Of a DNA stretch of 64,000 bases, positions 37,466 through 64,000 are shown piece after piece. The notes beneath the pieces are model-generated. The model was not told the DNA's origin, ran no database searches, and saw only the letters and a list, made by a program, of their open reading frames with translations. The stretch is from an uncultured delta proteobacterium (GTDB taxonomy: Bacteria > Desulfobacterota > Binatia > Binatales > Binataceae). The DNA lies in NCBI GenBank assembly GCA_963710455.1, contig CAVQAG010000017.1:472149-536148 (forward strand). The letters run 5' to 3'. Made by a program: the position numbers and the translations under genes. Positions within the stretch are counted from its first letter, which is position 1. Each line of letters starts with the position of its first letter.

Positions 37466-38923
37466 TTACGGTCGTAGAGGGGCAAACGATACCGCGAACG
37501 CCGTCGCATCGTCCACTGCTCGCACGTCGAGTAGGAAGGCGTCATCCGCGATACGTCCGATGACCGGCGGGCGCGCCGCGCGGAACATCGCAGCAATGCC
37601 CTCAGGGGAAAGCTCAGGGTGAGTGACGCGAACCGCACGGGAGGGAATTTCTTCGGTCGGCTGCGCACCCGATCCGATTTGCGACAATGAGGGCACCACC
37701 TCGAGGCGGAAGTTTAGGTCCAGGCGTTCGGCGAGGATTTCACGGGCACGCTCTGCAACCAGCTCGAGCTCGCCCGCGGTGCGGCTTAAGTAGCGTAACG
37801 TAGGCAGTGTCGCGGCTAGATCGCCAGCGCGAAGATAAAGCCGCAGGGTGGCTTCCAGAGCCGACAAGGTCAGTTTATCGCAGCGGAGTGCCCGCCGAAG
37901 CGCATTCGCGCGCATTTTATTCACCAGTTCCCGTCGCCCCACCGCAACTCCCGCCTGCGGTCCGCCAAGCAACTTGTCGCCGGAGAACGTCACCAGCGCC
38001 GCACCGGCTGAAATCCGTTCGGCGACCATCGGCTCGCGCGGCAAGCCGAGTCGTCCAAGATCGATCAACGCCCCCGAGCCGAGATCCTCGGCCACGTCGA
38101 TTCCGTGACGCCGTCCGATTTCGACCAGCTCAGGCAGAGCGACCTCGGCGGTGAAGCCGACCACCCGATAGTTGGAGGGGTGGACCTTGAGCAGGAGCGC
38201 GGTGTCGGGGCCGATCGCGCGTTCATAGTCGGCGGGATGCGTGCGATTGGTGGTACCGACTTCGCGCAGGCGCGCTCCGCTGTGCTCCATCAGATCGGGC
38301 AGCCTGAAGGAGCCGCCGATTTCGATCAGCTCGCCGCGCGAAACCACCACTTCGCGCCCGGCGGCCAGCGAATTGAGCGCGAGCAGCACCGCGGCGGCGT
38401 TGTTGTTGACCACGGTCGCGGCTTGGGCGCCCGTGAGCGCGCATAGCTCCTCTTCGACCAGAGCGTCGCGCTCGCCGCGGCCGCCGCTTTCGAGGTCATA
38501 CTCGAGATTGACCGCAGTGCGCGCCGCCGTCGCCATCGCGTCGATCGCCGGCTCAGCCAAAAGCGCGCGGCCGAGATTGGTGTGGAGCACGACGCCGGTC
38601 GCGTTGACCACGGGATGCAGCGAGGGCTCGTCGGCTTCTATAGTGGTCCGCGTGCGCCGGATTACTTCCTCGAGCATCGCCTGGCGAGAGGATGCGCCAG
38701 AGGCTGGTCCCTGCTTCGACACGAGCGCAAGGCGCAGTTCCGCCTGGGCCCGGCGCACCATCAATTTCACATACTCGCGTCCGAGTCCCTCGATGCCATC
38801 GAGGCCCTCGCACGCGCGCAGGCATTCGTCCACCGGCGGCATTGCGCGCAGCGACTCGGCGCGCGCGTCGCGCCCGGCCCGCGTGGCAGCTGCACGGCCT
38901 TTCTTCGCCTGATCGGAACTCAT
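37466..38923 (-). CDS. selA: L-seryl-tRNA(Sec) selenium transferase
   Basis: NATGVVLHTNLGRA, VNNNAAAV, SRGELIEIGGSFR, EVGTTNRT, FSGDKLLGGPQAG. Confidence 0.96.
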   Translation of the reverse strand: MSSDQAKKGRAAATRAGRDARAESLRAMPPVDECLRACEGLDGIEGLGREYVKLMVRRAQAELRLALVSKQGPASGASSRQAMLEEVIRRTRTTIEADEPSLHPVVNATGVVLHTNLGRALLAEPAIDAMATAARTAVNLEYDLESGGRGERDALVEEELCALTGAQAATVVNNNAAAVLLALNSLAAGREVVVSRGELIEIGGSFRLPDLMEHSGARLREVGTTNRTHPADYERAIGPDTALLLKVHPSNYRVVGFTAEVALPELVEIGRRHGIDVAEDLGSGALIDLGRLGLPREPMVAERISAGAALVTFSGDKLLGGPQAGVAVGRRELVNKMRANALRRALRCDKLTLSALEATLRLYLRAGDLAATLPTLRYLSRTAGELELVAERAREILAERLDLNFRLEVVPSLSQIGSGAQPTEEIPSRAVRVTHPELSPEGIAAMFRAARPPVIGRIADDAFLLDVRAVDDATAFAVSFAPLRP

Positions 38924-53278: not shown

Positions 53279-53890
53279 ATGGCCTGGATTCGTACGATCT
53301 CCGAGCAGGAGGCCGAAGGCCCGCTTGCCGACCTCTACGCCAAGCTGCGGCAAAATCCGCACTTCGGCGTGGTCCCCAACGTGATAAAGGCCTTCAGCCT
53401 GCGGCCAGAAATCGCCGCCGCGGTGACCAGGCTCTCGAGCGCGGCAACCTTCGGCGGCTCGCATCTTAGCCGCGTACAGGAGGAGATGATCGCGGCAGCC
53501 GTGTCGTCGGTAAACCGATGCCATTATTGAACCAACGCTCACGCGGAGGTGCTCCGCGTCGAGTCCCGTGGCGACCATGCGCTGGTTGCAGCGATCAAAA
53601 ACGACTGGCGCAGTGCGCCGCTTGGCACCGCTGACCGCGCGATGCTGGAGTACGCTGAGAAACTTACCCGCACGCCGTCAGCAATGACGCGCGCCGACCT
53701 CGACGGCCTGCGCCGTTATTTTTCCGAGGAGCAGGCTTACGACATCGTTGTGATCACTTGCCTGTTCAACTTCATGGACCGCGCCGCCGACGCGTTTGGT
53801 GTCGAACTCGATCCGATGCTTTTGCAACTCGCGCAATCGGCGCCCGACGGCGAAGCGCTAGGCGAAGTCGCCGCGTCCAAACGGAGCTGA
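53279..53890 (+). CDS. AhpD/CMD-like peroxidase, predicted selenoprotein (Sec at UGA 53528-53530, codon 84)
   Basis: NRCHY-UGA-TNAHAEVLR matches the AhpD CxYC..AH motif; frame continues with MLEYAEKLT..P, FNFMDR; SECIS-like hairpin. Confidence 0.88.
53541..53559 (+). promoter_or_regulatory. Putative bacterial SECIS element
   Basis: ACGCGGAG-GTG-CTCCGCGT perfect 8-bp stem, starting 11 nt after the UGA. Confidence 0.75.
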
Positions 53891-57854: not shown

Positions 57855-59249
57855 ATGAATGCGCAGTCCATACCGCGCCTGCTGATTTCCGCGACCGGCA
57901 GCGGCGCCGGCAAGACTACCGCGTCGATCGCGCTGATGGGTGCGCTGCGCGCGCGCGGGATGCGCGTCGCCGCCTTCAAATGCGGCCCCGATTATCTCGA
58001 CCCGACGTATCATCGCCGCGCCGCAGGTGTAGTCTCCCACAATCTCGACGGCTGGATGATGGATCGCGCCTCGGTGCTCGCGACTTTCGTGCGCGCAGCC
58101 GAGGGCGCCGACGTCGCGGTTATCGAAGGAATGATGGGGTTGTTCGACGGCGCTACCTCCACTGGCGACGAGGGCTCGTCGGCACAGATCGCGAAGTGGC
58201 TAGCGGCGCCTGTGCTGTTGGTGGTCGACGCGTCCGGCATGGCGCGCACGGTGGCGGCGGTGGCGCACGGATTCAGCCATTTCGACCCGCGGCTCAGACT
58301 CGCCGGACTCATTTGCAACCGCGTCGGCAGCCGCGGCCATCTCGATTTGTTGCGCGCGGCGTCAGCGGACGTTCCGGTGCTCGGCGGCTTTCCGAGCGAG
58401 GCGCATTTTGCATTTCCCGAGCGTCATCTCGGATTGCTGAGCGCAGATGAAAAGAACGTTGCGACGCCGTTATTCGACGCCTGGGCGGATATGGCAGCGC
58501 AATGGCTCGACCTCGACGCGATCGTCTCGATAGCGCAGAGTGCCCCGGCGCTGGACGACGTCGAGGCTGCGGAGTTCTGGCCGCAAAGAGGGACGCGGGC
58601 GCCCCGATGCCGTATCGGCGTGGCATATGACGACGCCTTTCACTTTTATTACGAAGACAACCTGCGCCGGCTCGAAGCGTCTGGCGCCGAACTGGTGCGC
58701 TTCGCGCCAACGCGCGAGGCACAGTTGCCGGACGTCGACGGACTTTACCTCGGTGGTGGCTATCCCGAAGCGCGCGCCGCCGAGCTTTCCGCTAATCGCA
58801 CGATGATCGACGCGATCCGAGGCTTCGCACGAAGCGGGGGGCCGATCTACGCCGAGTGCGGCGGCCTGATGTATCTCAGCGACGGTATTCGCACGCTCGA
58901 CGGACGCACGTGGCCGATGGTAGGCCTCGTCACCGGAGAGGCTGTGATGTCCGAAAGGCTACAGGCGCTCGGCTACGTCGAGGTTGAGACGCGCGGCGAG
59001 TCGATTATGGGGCCCGCGGGGATGCGGATGCGGGGCCATCAGTTCCGCTACTCGACGCTCACGCCCAATCCGGAGCGGATGGAACGCGTGTACGCAGTGC
59101 GACCGCGATGGGGCGAGCCGTTCGTGGAGGGCTATCGCGCAGGCAGCGTGCTCGCCTCTTATGTGCACGTTCACTGGGCGTCGAACCCCCAGGCTGCCGA
59201 AGGATTCGTAGATTCATGCGCCGCCTGGCGCGAGCACCGGCGCAAGTGA
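57855..59249 (+). CDS. cbiA: Cobyrinate a,c-diamide synthase
   Basis: SGAGKTT, FKCGPDYLDP, IEGMMGLFDG, PERHLGL, AFHFYY, GGGYPE, YAECGG.MYL. Confidence 0.94.
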   Translation: MNAQSIPRLLISATGSGAGKTTASIALMGALRARGMRVAAFKCGPDYLDPTYHRRAAGVVSHNLDGWMMDRASVLATFVRAAEGADVAVIEGMMGLFDGATSTGDEGSSAQIAKWLAAPVLLVVDASGMARTVAAVAHGFSHFDPRLRLAGLICNRVGSRGHLDLLRAASADVPVLGGFPSEAHFAFPERHLGLLSADEKNVATPLFDAWADMAAQWLDLDAIVSIAQSAPALDDVEAAEFWPQRGTRAPRCRIGVAYDDAFHFYYEDNLRRLEASGAELVRFAPTREAQLPDVDGLYLGGGYPEARAAELSANRTMIDAIRGFARSGGPIYAECGGLMYLSDGIRTLDGRTWPMVGLVTGEAVMSERLQALGYVEVETRGESIMGPAGMRMRGHQFRYSTLTPNPERMERVYAVRPRWGEPFVEGYRAGSVLASYVHVHWASNPQAAEGFVDSCAAWREHRRK

Positions 59250-60789
59250 CGGCGCGAACCACGCCGGCGCGCACGCTGATGGTGCAGGGCACCGCGTCCT
59301 CAGTCGGCAAAAGCCTGATCGTCGCCGCGTTCTGCCGAATCTTTCATCGCGAAGGGTTGAGCGTCGCGCCGTTCAAAGCGCAGAACATGGCGCTCAACTC
59401 GTTCGTCACGCCCGACGGCGGCGAGATCGGACGCGCACAAGCGGTACAGGCTGAGGCCGCCGGTATCGAGCCGCGCGTTGAGATGAATCCAATCCTGCTG
59501 AAGCCCGAAGGCGGGCTGCGCTCGCAGGTGATTGTGCTTGGCAAGCCGCGCAGCCGGATGACCTGGACCGAGTACCAACAGCTCAAGCCTGAGTTCGTGC
59601 GGATAATCGCGGACTCGCTGCATACTTTGCGTGCGAAACACGATCTGATCGTAATCGAAGGTGCGGGCTCGCCCGCCGAGGTCAACCTTGCCACGCAGGA
59701 CATCGTGAACATGCACGTCGCAGCCGAGGCCGAGGCGCCGGTGTTGCTCGTCGGAGATATCGACCGGGGCGGCGTGTTTGCCCATCTCACCGGCACGATG
59801 GAATTGCTCGCGCCTGCCGATCGCACGCACGTGGCTGGTTTTCTGATCAACAAATTTCGTGGCGACCCGGCGCTGTTGGCTGCGGGGCTGGAATTCCTCC
59901 GCGCGCGCTTTCACATTCCGGTGCTCGGTGTGATCCCTTACCTTGAACGCCTTCGTATCGCCGACGAAGACTCGGCGGCGCTGGAGGATCGCCGCCTCAG
60001 GCGCGCAGCCGAACGCGGTCAAATCGACATCGCGGTAATACGGCTTCCGCGAATATCCAACTTCGACGATTTTCTCGCCCTCGAGCACGAAGACGGCGTC
60101 ACCGTGCGGTTCGTCGAGGACGCCGGGGAATTAGGCGGCGCCGACCTCGCGATAATCCCGGGATCGAAGAGCACCGTTGCCGATCTCAGATGGCTAAGCG
60201 AGAGCGGGTTCGCGCGCGCGATCGTTACGCGGGCGCGCGAGGGAGGCCTGGTTGCGGGAATTTGCGGCGGATGCCAGATGCTGGGCGAGCAAATCGAGGA
60301 TCCGCATCGCGTCGAGTCGGACGAGGTTTCGGTGCGCGGCCTCGGCCTGTTGCCCATAGTCACGCGCTTCGCGAAGACCAAGCTCACCGCGCAAGTGCGC
60401 GCGCGGGTCGAGGCTACTTCCATTTTAGGCATCGCGGATAGCGGCGCGGACGAGATCTCCGCCTATGAAATTCACATGGGAAACCTCGAACGCGTCGTAG
60501 GAACGGCAGCGCCGTTTCGGATCGTCGAGCGCAACGGCGCTTCGCCGATACGCTCGACGGCGCGATGAACCCCGCCGGCACGGTCGTAGGCACAATGCTC
60601 CATGGAATTTTAGAGAACGACGCGCTGCGCGGGGCTTTTCTCGGCGGGTTGCGCAGGCGCAAAGGACTCACCGCGGGCAGTGAGACGCAGCAGGTCGCCT
60701 CGCGCGAAGCAGAGTACGACCGCCTGGCCGCGGCGGTCACGGCCAGCGTCGACCTGACGGCGCTCCGAAAGATAGTGGGCCTCGGCTAA
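59246..60789 (+). pseudogene. cobQ: Cobyric acid synthase, split by an apparent 1-nt frameshift near 60535-60560
   Basis: MVQGT.S.VGKS, PFKAQNM.LN, EGAGSP.E.NL, GICGG.QMLG; C-terminal DGA...GT.LHG lies in the -1 frame (60565-60789). Confidence 0.8.
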
Positions 60790-61824: not shown

Positions 61825-62268
61825 ATGACTCCACAGGAGTTTGCGCAGCGCCTGAATCGCTTGTACACCGGCACCATGATGCAGGATATGGAGATGGTCC
61901 ATGCGGGCGAGGGGCGAGCGCGGGGGCGAGTGGAGTTCAAGCCGCATCTACGCCAACTCACCGGTCTGTTTCATGCCGGAGTGATCATGGGACTCGCCGA
62001 TACGACGGCGACTGCGGCTGCGATGTGGGAGGTTGACTCCAAACTGGCGCTCGAGGGCGAATTGAGGCCGGAGCTGTTCCCGCTCTCGATTCAGGTCTCG
62101 ACCAACCTCATCCGTAACACCGGCCGCGGCGCTCTCATCGCAGACGCCGAACTGATCCATCGGGGCAAAAGCACGATCGTGGCCGACGTTCGTGTTACCG
62201 ACGAACAATCGCGGCTGATCGCCAAGGTCAGCGTTACGCTGCTGGTGCCGAAACCGCCCGGGCGTTGA
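61825..62268 (+). CDS. PaaI family thioesterase (hot-dog fold)
   Basis: G.FHAGVIMGLADT, NLIRN, GKSTIV; ATG 61825 with AAAGGAAA RBS. Confidence 0.85.
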   Translation: MTPQEFAQRLNRLYTGTMMQDMEMVHAGEGRARGRVEFKPHLRQLTGLFHAGVIMGLADTTATAAAMWEVDSKLALEGELRPELFPLSIQVSTNLIRNTGRGALIADAELIHRGKSTIVADVRVTDEQSRLIAKVSVTLLVPKPPGR

Positions 62269-62297
62269 GGTCCAGCGAAGCTAGTTTCGAAAACCCG

Positions 62298-62621
62298 TCA
62301 GTTGCGAAATTTATCTGTCATGCGTCGAAGCACTGATCGTGCTCCGCCACCTTGCGCCTTGGACGAATCGGAGGCGGCCGACGTGTCCGCGGCGGGGGAC
62401 TTGAGCGTCGCGAAAATATCCTCGACCTCGCCGTCAGCCGGAAAGCGGCCGGCCTCGGCCTTGGAAAAGATCACCTGGCCGTCGACGAGCACGTCGAACT
62501 GTCCGGTTTTGCCAGCCTTGATTTCGGCGTTCTCACCGAAGCGCTTTTGTAGCGAGGCGGCCAAACTGGCCGCGCGAGGTTTGTATCCTCAAGCTGAACA
62601 GTAGAGTATTTCGGTCGCCAT
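62298..62621 (-). CDS. Rdx family (SelW/SelT/SelH-like) protein, predicted selenoprotein (Sec at UGA 62589-62591, codon 11)
   Basis: MATEILYCSA-UGA-GYKPRAASLA...G..GQFDV.VDG..IFSK...RFP; AAGGAAGGA RBS; SECIS-like hairpin. Confidence 0.9.
62557..62573 (-). promoter_or_regulatory. Putative bacterial SECIS element
   Basis: GCGGCCA-GTT-TGGCCGC perfect 7-bp stem at nt 16-32 after the UGA. Confidence 0.72.
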
Positions 62622-62681
62622 CCGCGTTCCTTCCTTATCATTCCATTACATGCGCCTGCGCTTGCATTTGCACCGGCGTAG

Positions 62682-63248
62682 TCACTTTCCCTCGGGCAGG
62701 TCGACGAACACCGCCGCCGCGACCACCGAAGTCCACAAGCCGTCGCGGTCCCCAATTGCCGATTGAGTGGCGTTGCGCGTGGTTACGATCTTGTCCGAAA
62801 CGCGCCAGACGTCTTTGCGCACGTCGTAGCTGGCATTTGGATCAAAATCGACGCCCAGGATCGTCGCGAGCATCGTCGCGGCGAGATCCTCCGCATAATC
62901 GCCCGCCTTCTGATCAGTCTCGCCGAAGCTGTGATGCTCGGAAAGATAGCCGTACTGGCTCGGGTTGGCCGGAATCGCAACGCCGACCGACGCGGCGATG
63001 AGGCGGTGCGGTTCGTCGGTGGCATTGTCGCTGACCACGGCGAAAACGATCTGGCCGGGACTGAGGCGCTTGAGCCCCTCCTGCGGCGTGATCAGCTTGC
63101 AGTAAGGCGGAAAGATCGATTGGACGCGCACCAGGTTGTACTCGGCGATGCCGGCGGAGCGCAGTGCCAGCTCGAACGAGTTGAGTTTCTCGCGATGCTT
63201 GCCGACCCCCTTGGTCAGGAACACCCCCCTCGCAAAAGGCCCCATCAA
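62682..63248 (-). CDS. Pyruvoyl-dependent arginine decarboxylase family protein
   Basis: G.G.H..KL.SFE.ALR.AGI..YNLVRV.SIFPP, GY.SEHH, W..V.AAAVF. Confidence 0.82.
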   Translation of the reverse strand: MMGPFARGVFLTKGVGKHREKLNSFELALRSAGIAEYNLVRVQSIFPPYCKLITPQEGLKRLSPGQIVFAVVSDNATDEPHRLIAASVGVAIPANPSQYGYLSEHHSFGETDQKAGDYAEDLAATMLATILGVDFDPNASYDVRKDVWRVSDKIVTTRNATQSAIGDRDGLWTSVVAAAVFVDLPEGK

Positions 63249-63362: not shown

Positions 63363-64000
63363 TTACACGACGTTGACCGGCTGGTACTCGCCGAACACGC
63401 GGCGCATCGCGTCCGAGATTTCGCCGAGCGTCGCCCAGTTGCGCACCGCATCGACAATCGCCGGCATCAAGTTGCCGCCGTCGCGCGCCGCCGCCTCGAC
63501 GCGTTCCAACGCGATGCCGGCGGCGGCGGCGTTGCGCTCGGCGCGCAGGCGGGCCAGCCGCTCGCACTGCTTTTGCTCGATCTCGGGATTGACCCGAAGA
63601 AGGTCGATCGGCGGCTGCTCGCCGGTCGTGAACTGGTTGAGTCCGACGATGATCCGCTGCTTGGATTCGATTTCGCGCTGGTAGAGGTAGGCGGCGGACT
63701 GGATTTCGCGCTGCATGTAACCGCGCTCGATCGCGGACACCGCGCCTCCAAGGTCGTCGATCTTGCCCAAGTACTCCAGCGTCTTTTTTTCGAGTTTCCG
63801 CGTGAGGCTTTCGACGTAGTATGAGCCGCCGAGCGGATCTACGGTATCGGCAACGTCGGACTCATTGGCGATGATCTGCTGAGTGCGCAGCGCGAGCAGC
63901 GCCGATTGCTCGGTAGGAAGCGCCAGCGCCTCGTCGCGCGAGTTGGTATGGAGCGATTGCGCGCCGCCCAGGACCGCAGCCAGCGCCTGCAGCGTCACGC
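63363..64000 (-). CDS. Methylmalonyl-CoA mutase family, N-terminal (substrate-binding) subunit; 5' part outside window
   Basis: LGGAQSLHTNS.DEAL.LP, LRTQQII..E, DP.GGSYYVE, IVG.N.F, ATLGEI; no fused B12-binding domain. Confidence 0.9.
   Translation of the reverse strand, partial: VTLQALAAVLGGAQSLHTNSRDEALALPTEQSALLALRTQQIIANESDVADTVDPLGGSYYVESLTRKLEKKTLEYLGKIDDLGGAVSAIERGYMQREIQSAAYLYQREIESKQRIIVGLNQFTTGEQPPIDLLRVNPEIEQKQCERLARLRAERNAAAAGIALERVEAAARDGGNLMPAIVDAVRNWATLGEISDAMRRVFGEYQPVNVV

Follow-up and report, generated by a model that had tools for sequence, protein, structure and literature searches.

Selenoproteins of the SelW-like type and their SECIS elements were described in bacteria in 2005-2006, in the Sargasso Sea selenoproteome and in later bacterial surveys (PMC1088965, PMC1794560). 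The family has been known for about 20 years and is routinely shortened by gene callers; curated HMMs exist for it, and JGI labels shortened relatives "predicted Rdx family selenoprotein". Among organisms that use selenocysteine (Sec), Cys homologues of SelW-like proteins are few or absent (PMC1794560). Our literature search found no paper linking Binatia or Binataceae with selenoproteins. Here we analysed a stretch of 64,000 nucleotides (hereafter the window, C17:472149-536148) from the 5.14 Mb, 17-contig genome of an uncultured soil Candidatus Binataceae. Judged from its sequence and that of its relatives, the gene at 62298-62621, the one Rdx gene in this genome, is very probably a genuine Sec-encoding bacterial SelW-like (Rdx family) selenoprotein gene, and the UGA at its codon 11 almost certainly specifies selenocysteine.

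The program-made list of open reading frames gives a single minus-strand frame at this locus, from TTG 62564 to 62298, encoding 88 aa. Read upstream, the same frame continues through an in-frame TGA to an ATG, so that it comprises MATEILYCSA, the TGA and GYKPRAASL..., and ends at a second TGA after 107 residues (Table 1). The original prediction had proposed this read-through product and had placed the true start at ATG 62621 instead of TTG 62564; the frame is present at these minus-strand positions, and the start is borne out by the position of the ATG in the orthologues. The strong ribosome-binding site that it also claimed holds for this genome and its genus, where relatives have GGAGAG at the Shine-Dalgarno place, but not for the family as a whole, in which only 23 of 80 sequences carry a core of this kind.

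Table 1. Positions in the window of the SelW-like gene, its parts and associated genes, with the evidence for each.
Feature	Position	Strand	Evidence or remark
Methylmalonyl-CoA mutase (MCM) catalytic subunit	63363..64000, past window end	minus	PF01642 746 bits, full 555-aa ORF from contig
Pyruvoyl-dependent arginine decarboxylase	62682..63248	minus	PF01862 192 bits; TIGR00286 127.6 bits, above cut-off; 60 nt before SelW-like ATG
Shine-Dalgarno-like AAGGAAGGA	62628..62636	minus	Direct sequence reading; spacer to ATG 6 nt
True start codon ATG	62619..62621	minus	ATG 7 codons before Cys in 79/79 orthologues; conservation ends directly upstream
Rdx/SelW-like thioredoxin-fold domain, residues 4-67	62421..62612	minus	PF10262, TIGR02174, AlphaFold2 (AF2), Foldseek
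Cys8 codon TGT of CxxU redox motif	62598..62600	minus	C8 invariant in alignments A1 and A3; end of strand beta1 in model
In-frame UGA, codon 11 (U11), predicted to be read as selenocysteine	62589..62591	minus	TGA in 80/80 Binataceae sequences including the window
Putative SECIS core hairpin GCGGCCA-GUU-UGGCCGC, 7 bp, 3-nt loop opening GU	62557..62573	minus	Fold and comparative data
Low-complexity Ala/Ser/Pro/Lys/Gly linker, residues 78-94	62340..62390	minus	Indels, nothing conserved in alignment A1; AF2 pLDDT <50 at residues 80-95
Basic amphipathic C-terminus RSVLRRMTDKFRN, residues 95-107	62301..62339	minus	Conserved in genus; putative function
True stop TGA	62298..62300	minus	Orthologue stops at same position: TGA (45), TAG (19), TAA (15)
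selA (selenocysteine synthase)	37505..38851 (C17:509653-510999)	minus	TIGR00474 563.8 bits, above cut-off; in window

We fetched 80 species-level loci from a public collection, 79 of which could be scored. An orthologue whose alignment begins at residue 1 and that contains one in-frame TGA occurs in each of the 16 genomes in the genus and in most of the family, and the Sec position is TGA in every one of the 79 scorable orthologues and Cys in none. Codons 1-10 show coding periodicity like that downstream of the UGA, with entropies at codon positions 1, 2 and 3 of 0.26, 0.14 and 0.88 upstream and 0.42, 0.26 and 0.96 downstream; codons 2-10 accumulate 177 synonymous versus 57 nonsynonymous codon differences, and entropy in the 45 nt before the ATG is 1.65 bits per column. 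Within the class, Cys forms are confined to other families (L115, CTQC; L116, CGPC), and the comparison with Cys orthologues that the original prediction proposed places their Cys at the position of U11, as do the alignments with the PDB homologues MIEN1 and Atu0228. In a phylum sample of 201 genomes the SelW-like gene was found in 42, with TGA in 40 of 43 matches, in agreement with the published remark on the scarcity of Cys homologues (PMC1794560).

These comparisons weigh against the reading in which the UGA is a real stop and the functional gene is the 88-aa ORF from TTG 62564, the ten upstream codons serving as a leader or micro-ORF. Public gene calls, like the ORF list, do give products of 87-88 aa and TGA is the commonest stop in this genome, yet the ten codons are conserved as protein, with third-position wobble, in 80 sequences, and this conservation ends exactly at the ATG. 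The called start is a Leu codon within the 3′ arm of the conserved hairpin described below; because the position is CTG in 64 of 80 aligned sequences, it cannot be a conserved start. The 88-aa product, which scores under the cut-off of TIGR02174, would furthermore be without the entire redox motif and strand beta1. Relatives do not begin downstream of the UGA, as a truncated gene would have them do: the ATG lies upstream and the TGA is invariant in 79 of 79, with nothing conserved before the ATG. We consider a true stop at this position highly improbable and proceed with the read-through gene.

Searching HMMs with the read-through protein, as had been proposed, raised both family scores and extended the match upstream of the UGA. 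Against PF10262 (Pfam Rdx; cut-off 22.6) the read-through protein scores 61.7 bits versus 32.8 for the 88-aa ORF, with a match that spans profile positions 3-69 of 74 and begins at residue 4; against TIGR02174 (NCBIfam CXXU_selWTH; cut-off 34.2) it scores 54.4 versus 28.1 for the shortened ORF. Homology is thus present upstream of the UGA, and the Rdx family signature recognised in the original prediction is confirmed by HMMs over their cut-offs and by a SelW/Rdx fold in the structural model. The Campylobacter-type equivalog NF041051 (SelTWH_Campy) gives 79.3 bits, under its cut-off of 88, and on this score the protein is related to the NF041051 group but outside that equivalog. The best sequence matches in the PDB are MIEN1/C17orf37 (E 1e-8), Atu0228, SAV_2001 and mouse SelW, in alignments that cover the CxxC/U motif. 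The AlphaFold2 model, built from 51 orthologues, has a pLDDT of 91-95 over residues 1-70 and the order beta1-alpha1-beta2-beta3-beta4-alpha2; C8-S-A-U11, of which C8 and position 11 are invariant, lies between strand 3-8 (beta1) and helix 14-28 (alpha1). In a Foldseek comparison with the PDB the best 23 matches are all SelW/Rdx structures, with target-normalised TM-scores of 0.50-0.90, and thioredoxins come next; the bacterial Rdx crystal structures among these matches reach target-normalised TM-scores of 0.76-0.90 with an rmsd of 1.0-2.8 Å. An unusual fusion was also seen in protein P0118 (347 aa), which joins an N-terminal Rdx-like domain without CxxC (RYCDSSGY) to an apparent RIO-type kinase domain (..HADLSPYNILF..IDFPQA..).

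The 7-bp hairpin with a GUU loop that had been claimed 16-32 nt after the UGA, counted from its A, is present exactly as described and is the stable element of the local fold. For the window sequence alone the fold has a z-score of -2.08, and 7 of 200 shuffles fold equally well; a hairpin from one sequence is weak evidence, and it is the comparative data that make it strong. Across 80 sequences (77 distinct), 92.5% of cells in the core stem (alignment columns 22-28 with 32-38) pair, compared with 26-50% for slid partners. The stem encodes Ala-Ala-Ser-Leu-Ala-Ala, and constraint on the RNA can therefore be separated from constraint on the protein: third-codon-position entropy is 0.16 bits in the core hairpin versus 1.22 outside it, the loop serine uses AGT in every one of the 80 sequences, a rare codon that makes up 8% of the Ser codons of this genome (61% G+C), and the G and U of the loop, which is GUU or GUC, are likewise invariant in all 80. 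The changes seen in the stem preserve pairing (G-C to G-U, C-G to U-G and A-U to G-U); L090 carries a synonymous double compensatory change from G-C to C-G, the single clean case in the 7-bp core, and some further double-sided covariation is found at the weak outer pair 21-39. What characterises the stem is conservation and not covariation, of which strict cases are sparse, and selection on the hairpin at the RNA level is unmistakable.

Synonymous sites that are frozen within the hairpin, together with a full Sec machinery in the genome, support the reading of this element as a bacterial SECIS. An Rfam scan of 62200-62760 at a permissive E-value returned no SECIS and no other credible RNA family. 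We also considered a lower helix in which the UGA itself would be paired (columns 5-10 with 14-19). Although 91.7% of its cells pair in the genus, we do not count it towards the SECIS: in 26 of 80 sequences column 15 has an A, mostly unpaired with the C, G or A of column 9, and the helix shows one double-sided change.

All parts of the Sec pathway that we sought are encoded. A tRNA-Sec lies at C11, complement 524740-524835, SelB and SelD score 370.7 and 383.6 bits, both over their curated cut-offs, and selA lies within the window itself (Table 1). The selB and selD genes are adjacent at C11:421056-423969, outside the window. The selD gene has one in-frame TGA of its own, at C11:423073 (..KAAG-U-AGKLGPEDL), and after it a GC-rich hairpin whose loop is GGA; together these suggest that SelD is itself a selenoprotein here. 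Within the window, an AhpD-like frame on the plus strand (53279-53890) is split at CHY-TGA and has a downstream hairpin, CGCGGAG-GUG-CUCCGCG, in the style of the SelW-like and SelD hairpins. In both SelD and this AhpD-like candidate a GC stem with a 3-nt loop opening with G lies some 20-25 nt after the UGA, and the hairpin style common to the three genes fits recognition of all of them by one SelB.

TGA ends 1581 of 3202 long open frames and is the commonest stop in the genome; since it is also the stop of this gene, the code is standard and the internal UGA would be a case of local recoding. The same usage, in which TGA is both the genome's main stop and this gene's terminator, speaks against a UGA decoded in some other way (as Trp, Gly or Cys, by a near-cognate or reassigned tRNA) with a hairpin that merely slows the ribosome. 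The position furthermore aligns with the catalytic Cys/Sec of the family, and tRNA-Sec, SelA, SelB and SelD are all encoded. What can be set on the other side is a public 103-aa relative, P0005, in which Gly stands at the Sec position (CSAGGYK); it is probably a database artefact of a TGA=Gly translation table and not a real Gly form, and we judge alternative decoding to be very unlikely. That the gene is a decaying Rdx pseudogene whose Cys codon (TGT/TGC) mutated to TGA is scarcely credible, for although one transversion in the third position (C or T to A) would suffice and some MAG copies (L046, L061, L065) have frameshifted tails, the TGA is kept in 80 of 80 species-level sequences whose identity falls to about 52-60%, purifying selection acts on either side of it, a Cys form is absent from the family, the SECIS is constrained as RNA, and the genome has the full Sec machinery.

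For selenocysteine insertion, which we regard as the correct reading, the following course can be proposed. The gene probably shares a transcript with the arginine decarboxylase gene upstream, and translation would begin at ATG 62621. At the UGA (62591-62589) the hairpin, acting as a bacterial SECIS, would recruit SelB-GTP-Sec-tRNA(Sec) to the ribosome, and the codon would be recoded. In the resulting Rdx-fold product, Cys8-x-x-Sec11 would most likely alternate between the reduced selenolate/thiol state and a selenenylsulfide, with a thiol or disulfide as substrate; both the chemistry and the kind of substrate are drawn from the family.

The neighbourhood was originally reported as a pyruvoyl decarboxylase and an MCM subunit upstream on the same strand, and PF01862 and PF01642 confirm both assignments (Table 1). 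Further upstream on this strand lie a carboxyltransferase, a biotin carboxylase and a biotin carboxyl carrier (BCCP), a propionyl-CoA-carboxylase-like set, and the cluster that these form with the MCM gene extends from 63363-64000 of the window into the contig beyond it (window-equivalent 64001-68810, minus strand). The 60-nt gap between the arginine decarboxylase gene and the SelW-like ATG showed no site resembling a terminator or a promoter, and co-transcription of the two genes is plausible from this arrangement. On the other side, a convergent 4HBT thioesterase gene ends 29 nt past the SelW-like stop, followed by a gene of the chlorite-dismutase family. Loci of the Ca. Binatus type have, between the SelW-like and the chlorite-dismutase-family (HemQ-like) genes, a conserved ORF of about 362 aa in convergent orientation (MISKGDDYPIHQTPEPVQQVF...; for example L067:4351-5661(-) and L074:4297-5385(-)); it is absent from the window, in whose genus the 4HBT thioesterase takes that place. 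Elsewhere in the window, cobB-like and cobQ-like cobalamin genes lie on the other strand at 57855-60568, which makes B12 supply and a B12 enzyme, MCM, neighbours.

The context had been described as unrecognised. It proves to be a gene order conserved across the family, but it is not general to SelW-like genes: the order MCM, arginine decarboxylase, SelW-like gene is found at about 78 of 80 Binataceae loci, with the decarboxylase directly adjacent in most and the downstream genes varying, and when five SelW-like loci in other families of the same class were compared, none had it. We do not take this order to indicate functional coupling to the arginine decarboxylase or MCM, as inherited synteny explains it equally well.

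Beyond the Rdx domain the protein continues into a low-complexity linker and a basic amphipathic C-terminus (Table 1). About 60 of 79 orthologues are long forms that end in the tail motif, G-phi-phi-x-R-phi-phi-x-K-phi-R/K, and about 17 of the 79 are short forms of 74-82 aa. Nothing tail-like was found in the DNA past the stops of the short forms, which are therefore genuinely short, and read-through of their stops is rejected. The C-terminal tails of three MAG orthologues, L046 (=L025), L061 and L065, are frame-shifted to give products of 107-162 aa with unrelated ends, the cause being either indels that arose in assembly of the low-complexity linker or genuine frameshifts. The tail of the window's protein has a hydrophobic moment of 0.80, the highest in the protein and one that 6% of tail shuffles match; its charge is +3 (+2 to +4 family-wide) and its hydrophobic residues are spaced i, i+1, i+4, i+8. 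AF2 predicts no helix in the tail, at a pLDDT of about 50. The tail was considered beside the membrane-targeting C-termini of MinD/FtsA type, which have a short helix with a hydrophobic and a basic face behind a flexible linker; the genome has no MinD above cut-off, and hence offers no comparison of its own. A role as a general C-terminal tag was rejected, as a similar motif closes only 2 of the genome's 46,697 open frames. One of these two is a plus-strand frame on C14 of 446 codons between stops, from near base 320536, that ends ..GGLVKRMMDRLRMRL. An exhaustive profile search found unrelated SelW-like clusters (P0026, P0033, P0057, P0058 and P0151), of both Cys and Sec forms, whose layout is similar, with a Pro-rich linker and then an amphipathic aromatic/basic end.

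We offer, tentatively and as a possibility that we would not ourselves bet on, that the long-form SelW-like proteins of Binataceae form a tethered subclass, in which the disordered linker and a basic amphipathic helix (SVLRRMTDKFRN here, GFVGRMLGKLRN in Ca. Binatus) would hold Cys-x-x-Sec at the cytoplasmic face of the membrane or at a fixed partner. The lack of a predicted helix and the share of shuffles that equal the tail's moment speak against this proposal, and the absence of MinD limits its assessment. MIEN1, the nearest relative with a solved structure, is membrane-associated through a C-terminal geranylgeranyl anchor (PMC6738349), which provides a precedent for a C-terminal anchor on an Rdx domain. 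If the proposal is true, the tail would be a peptide analogue of the MIEN1 prenyl anchor, and tethering would be a theme that recurs among bacterial Rdx proteins, has so far gone undescribed and hints at the location of the substrate.

Compared with known systems, the recoding mechanism and the protein family have long been described, and knowledge of Sec decoding is unchanged by this gene. On a practical level, the analysis corrects an annotation error, as public gene calls begin at a Leu codon within the SECIS and so lose the active site. It also brings the Binataceae, which are uncultured and abundant in soil, into the set of lineages that use Sec, with what appears to be a redox-type selenoproteome of SelD, the SelW-like protein and probably the AhpD-like one. 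The hairpin resembles the E. coli fdhF-type SECIS in lying within the coding region just 3′ of the UGA and in having GU open its apical loop (PMC1088965), and its distance from the UGA fits the consensus of a small apical loop with G. The Binataceae stem differs from the fdhF type in being a perfect, GC-rich 7-bp helix with a 3-nt loop and no bulged U; its binding by SelB is putative, and it has no Rfam match.

Among proteins, the closest structural matches are the Cys-type bacterial Rdx structures (Atu0228 2fa8, SAV_2001 3dex, VC0916-like 2p0g, 2obk, 2ojl and 2oka), which differ in having CxxC (typically CTQC), in being 24-36% identical and in lacking a SECIS. MIEN1 (2ljk; PMC3527542) and mammalian SelW (2npb) share the fold, and the MIEN1 alignment runs through CxxC/U and the GxFE/D...G..FSK..G.FP core; however, eukaryotic SelW uses a SECIS in the 3′-UTR, MIEN1 has Cys, and neither has a basic amphipathic tail. 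The putative tethering of the Binataceae protein would be by a peptide helix, in contrast to the lipid of MIEN1. With the described bacterial SelW-like selenoproteins the protein shares a small Rdx thioredoxin-like fold, an N-terminal CxxU, a SECIS with a small G-containing apical loop after the UGA, and a near-exclusive use of Sec over Cys (79/79 in the family and 40/43 in the phylum sample). It differs from them in a C-terminal extension of roughly 40 residues outside the 74-position domain model, and its gene in a family-wide fixed place downstream of MCM and the arginine decarboxylase, within an uncultured soil lineage. The conserved C-terminal tail and this fixed place are what the locus adds beyond the known, and both are testable hints to the function of bacterial SelW-like proteins.
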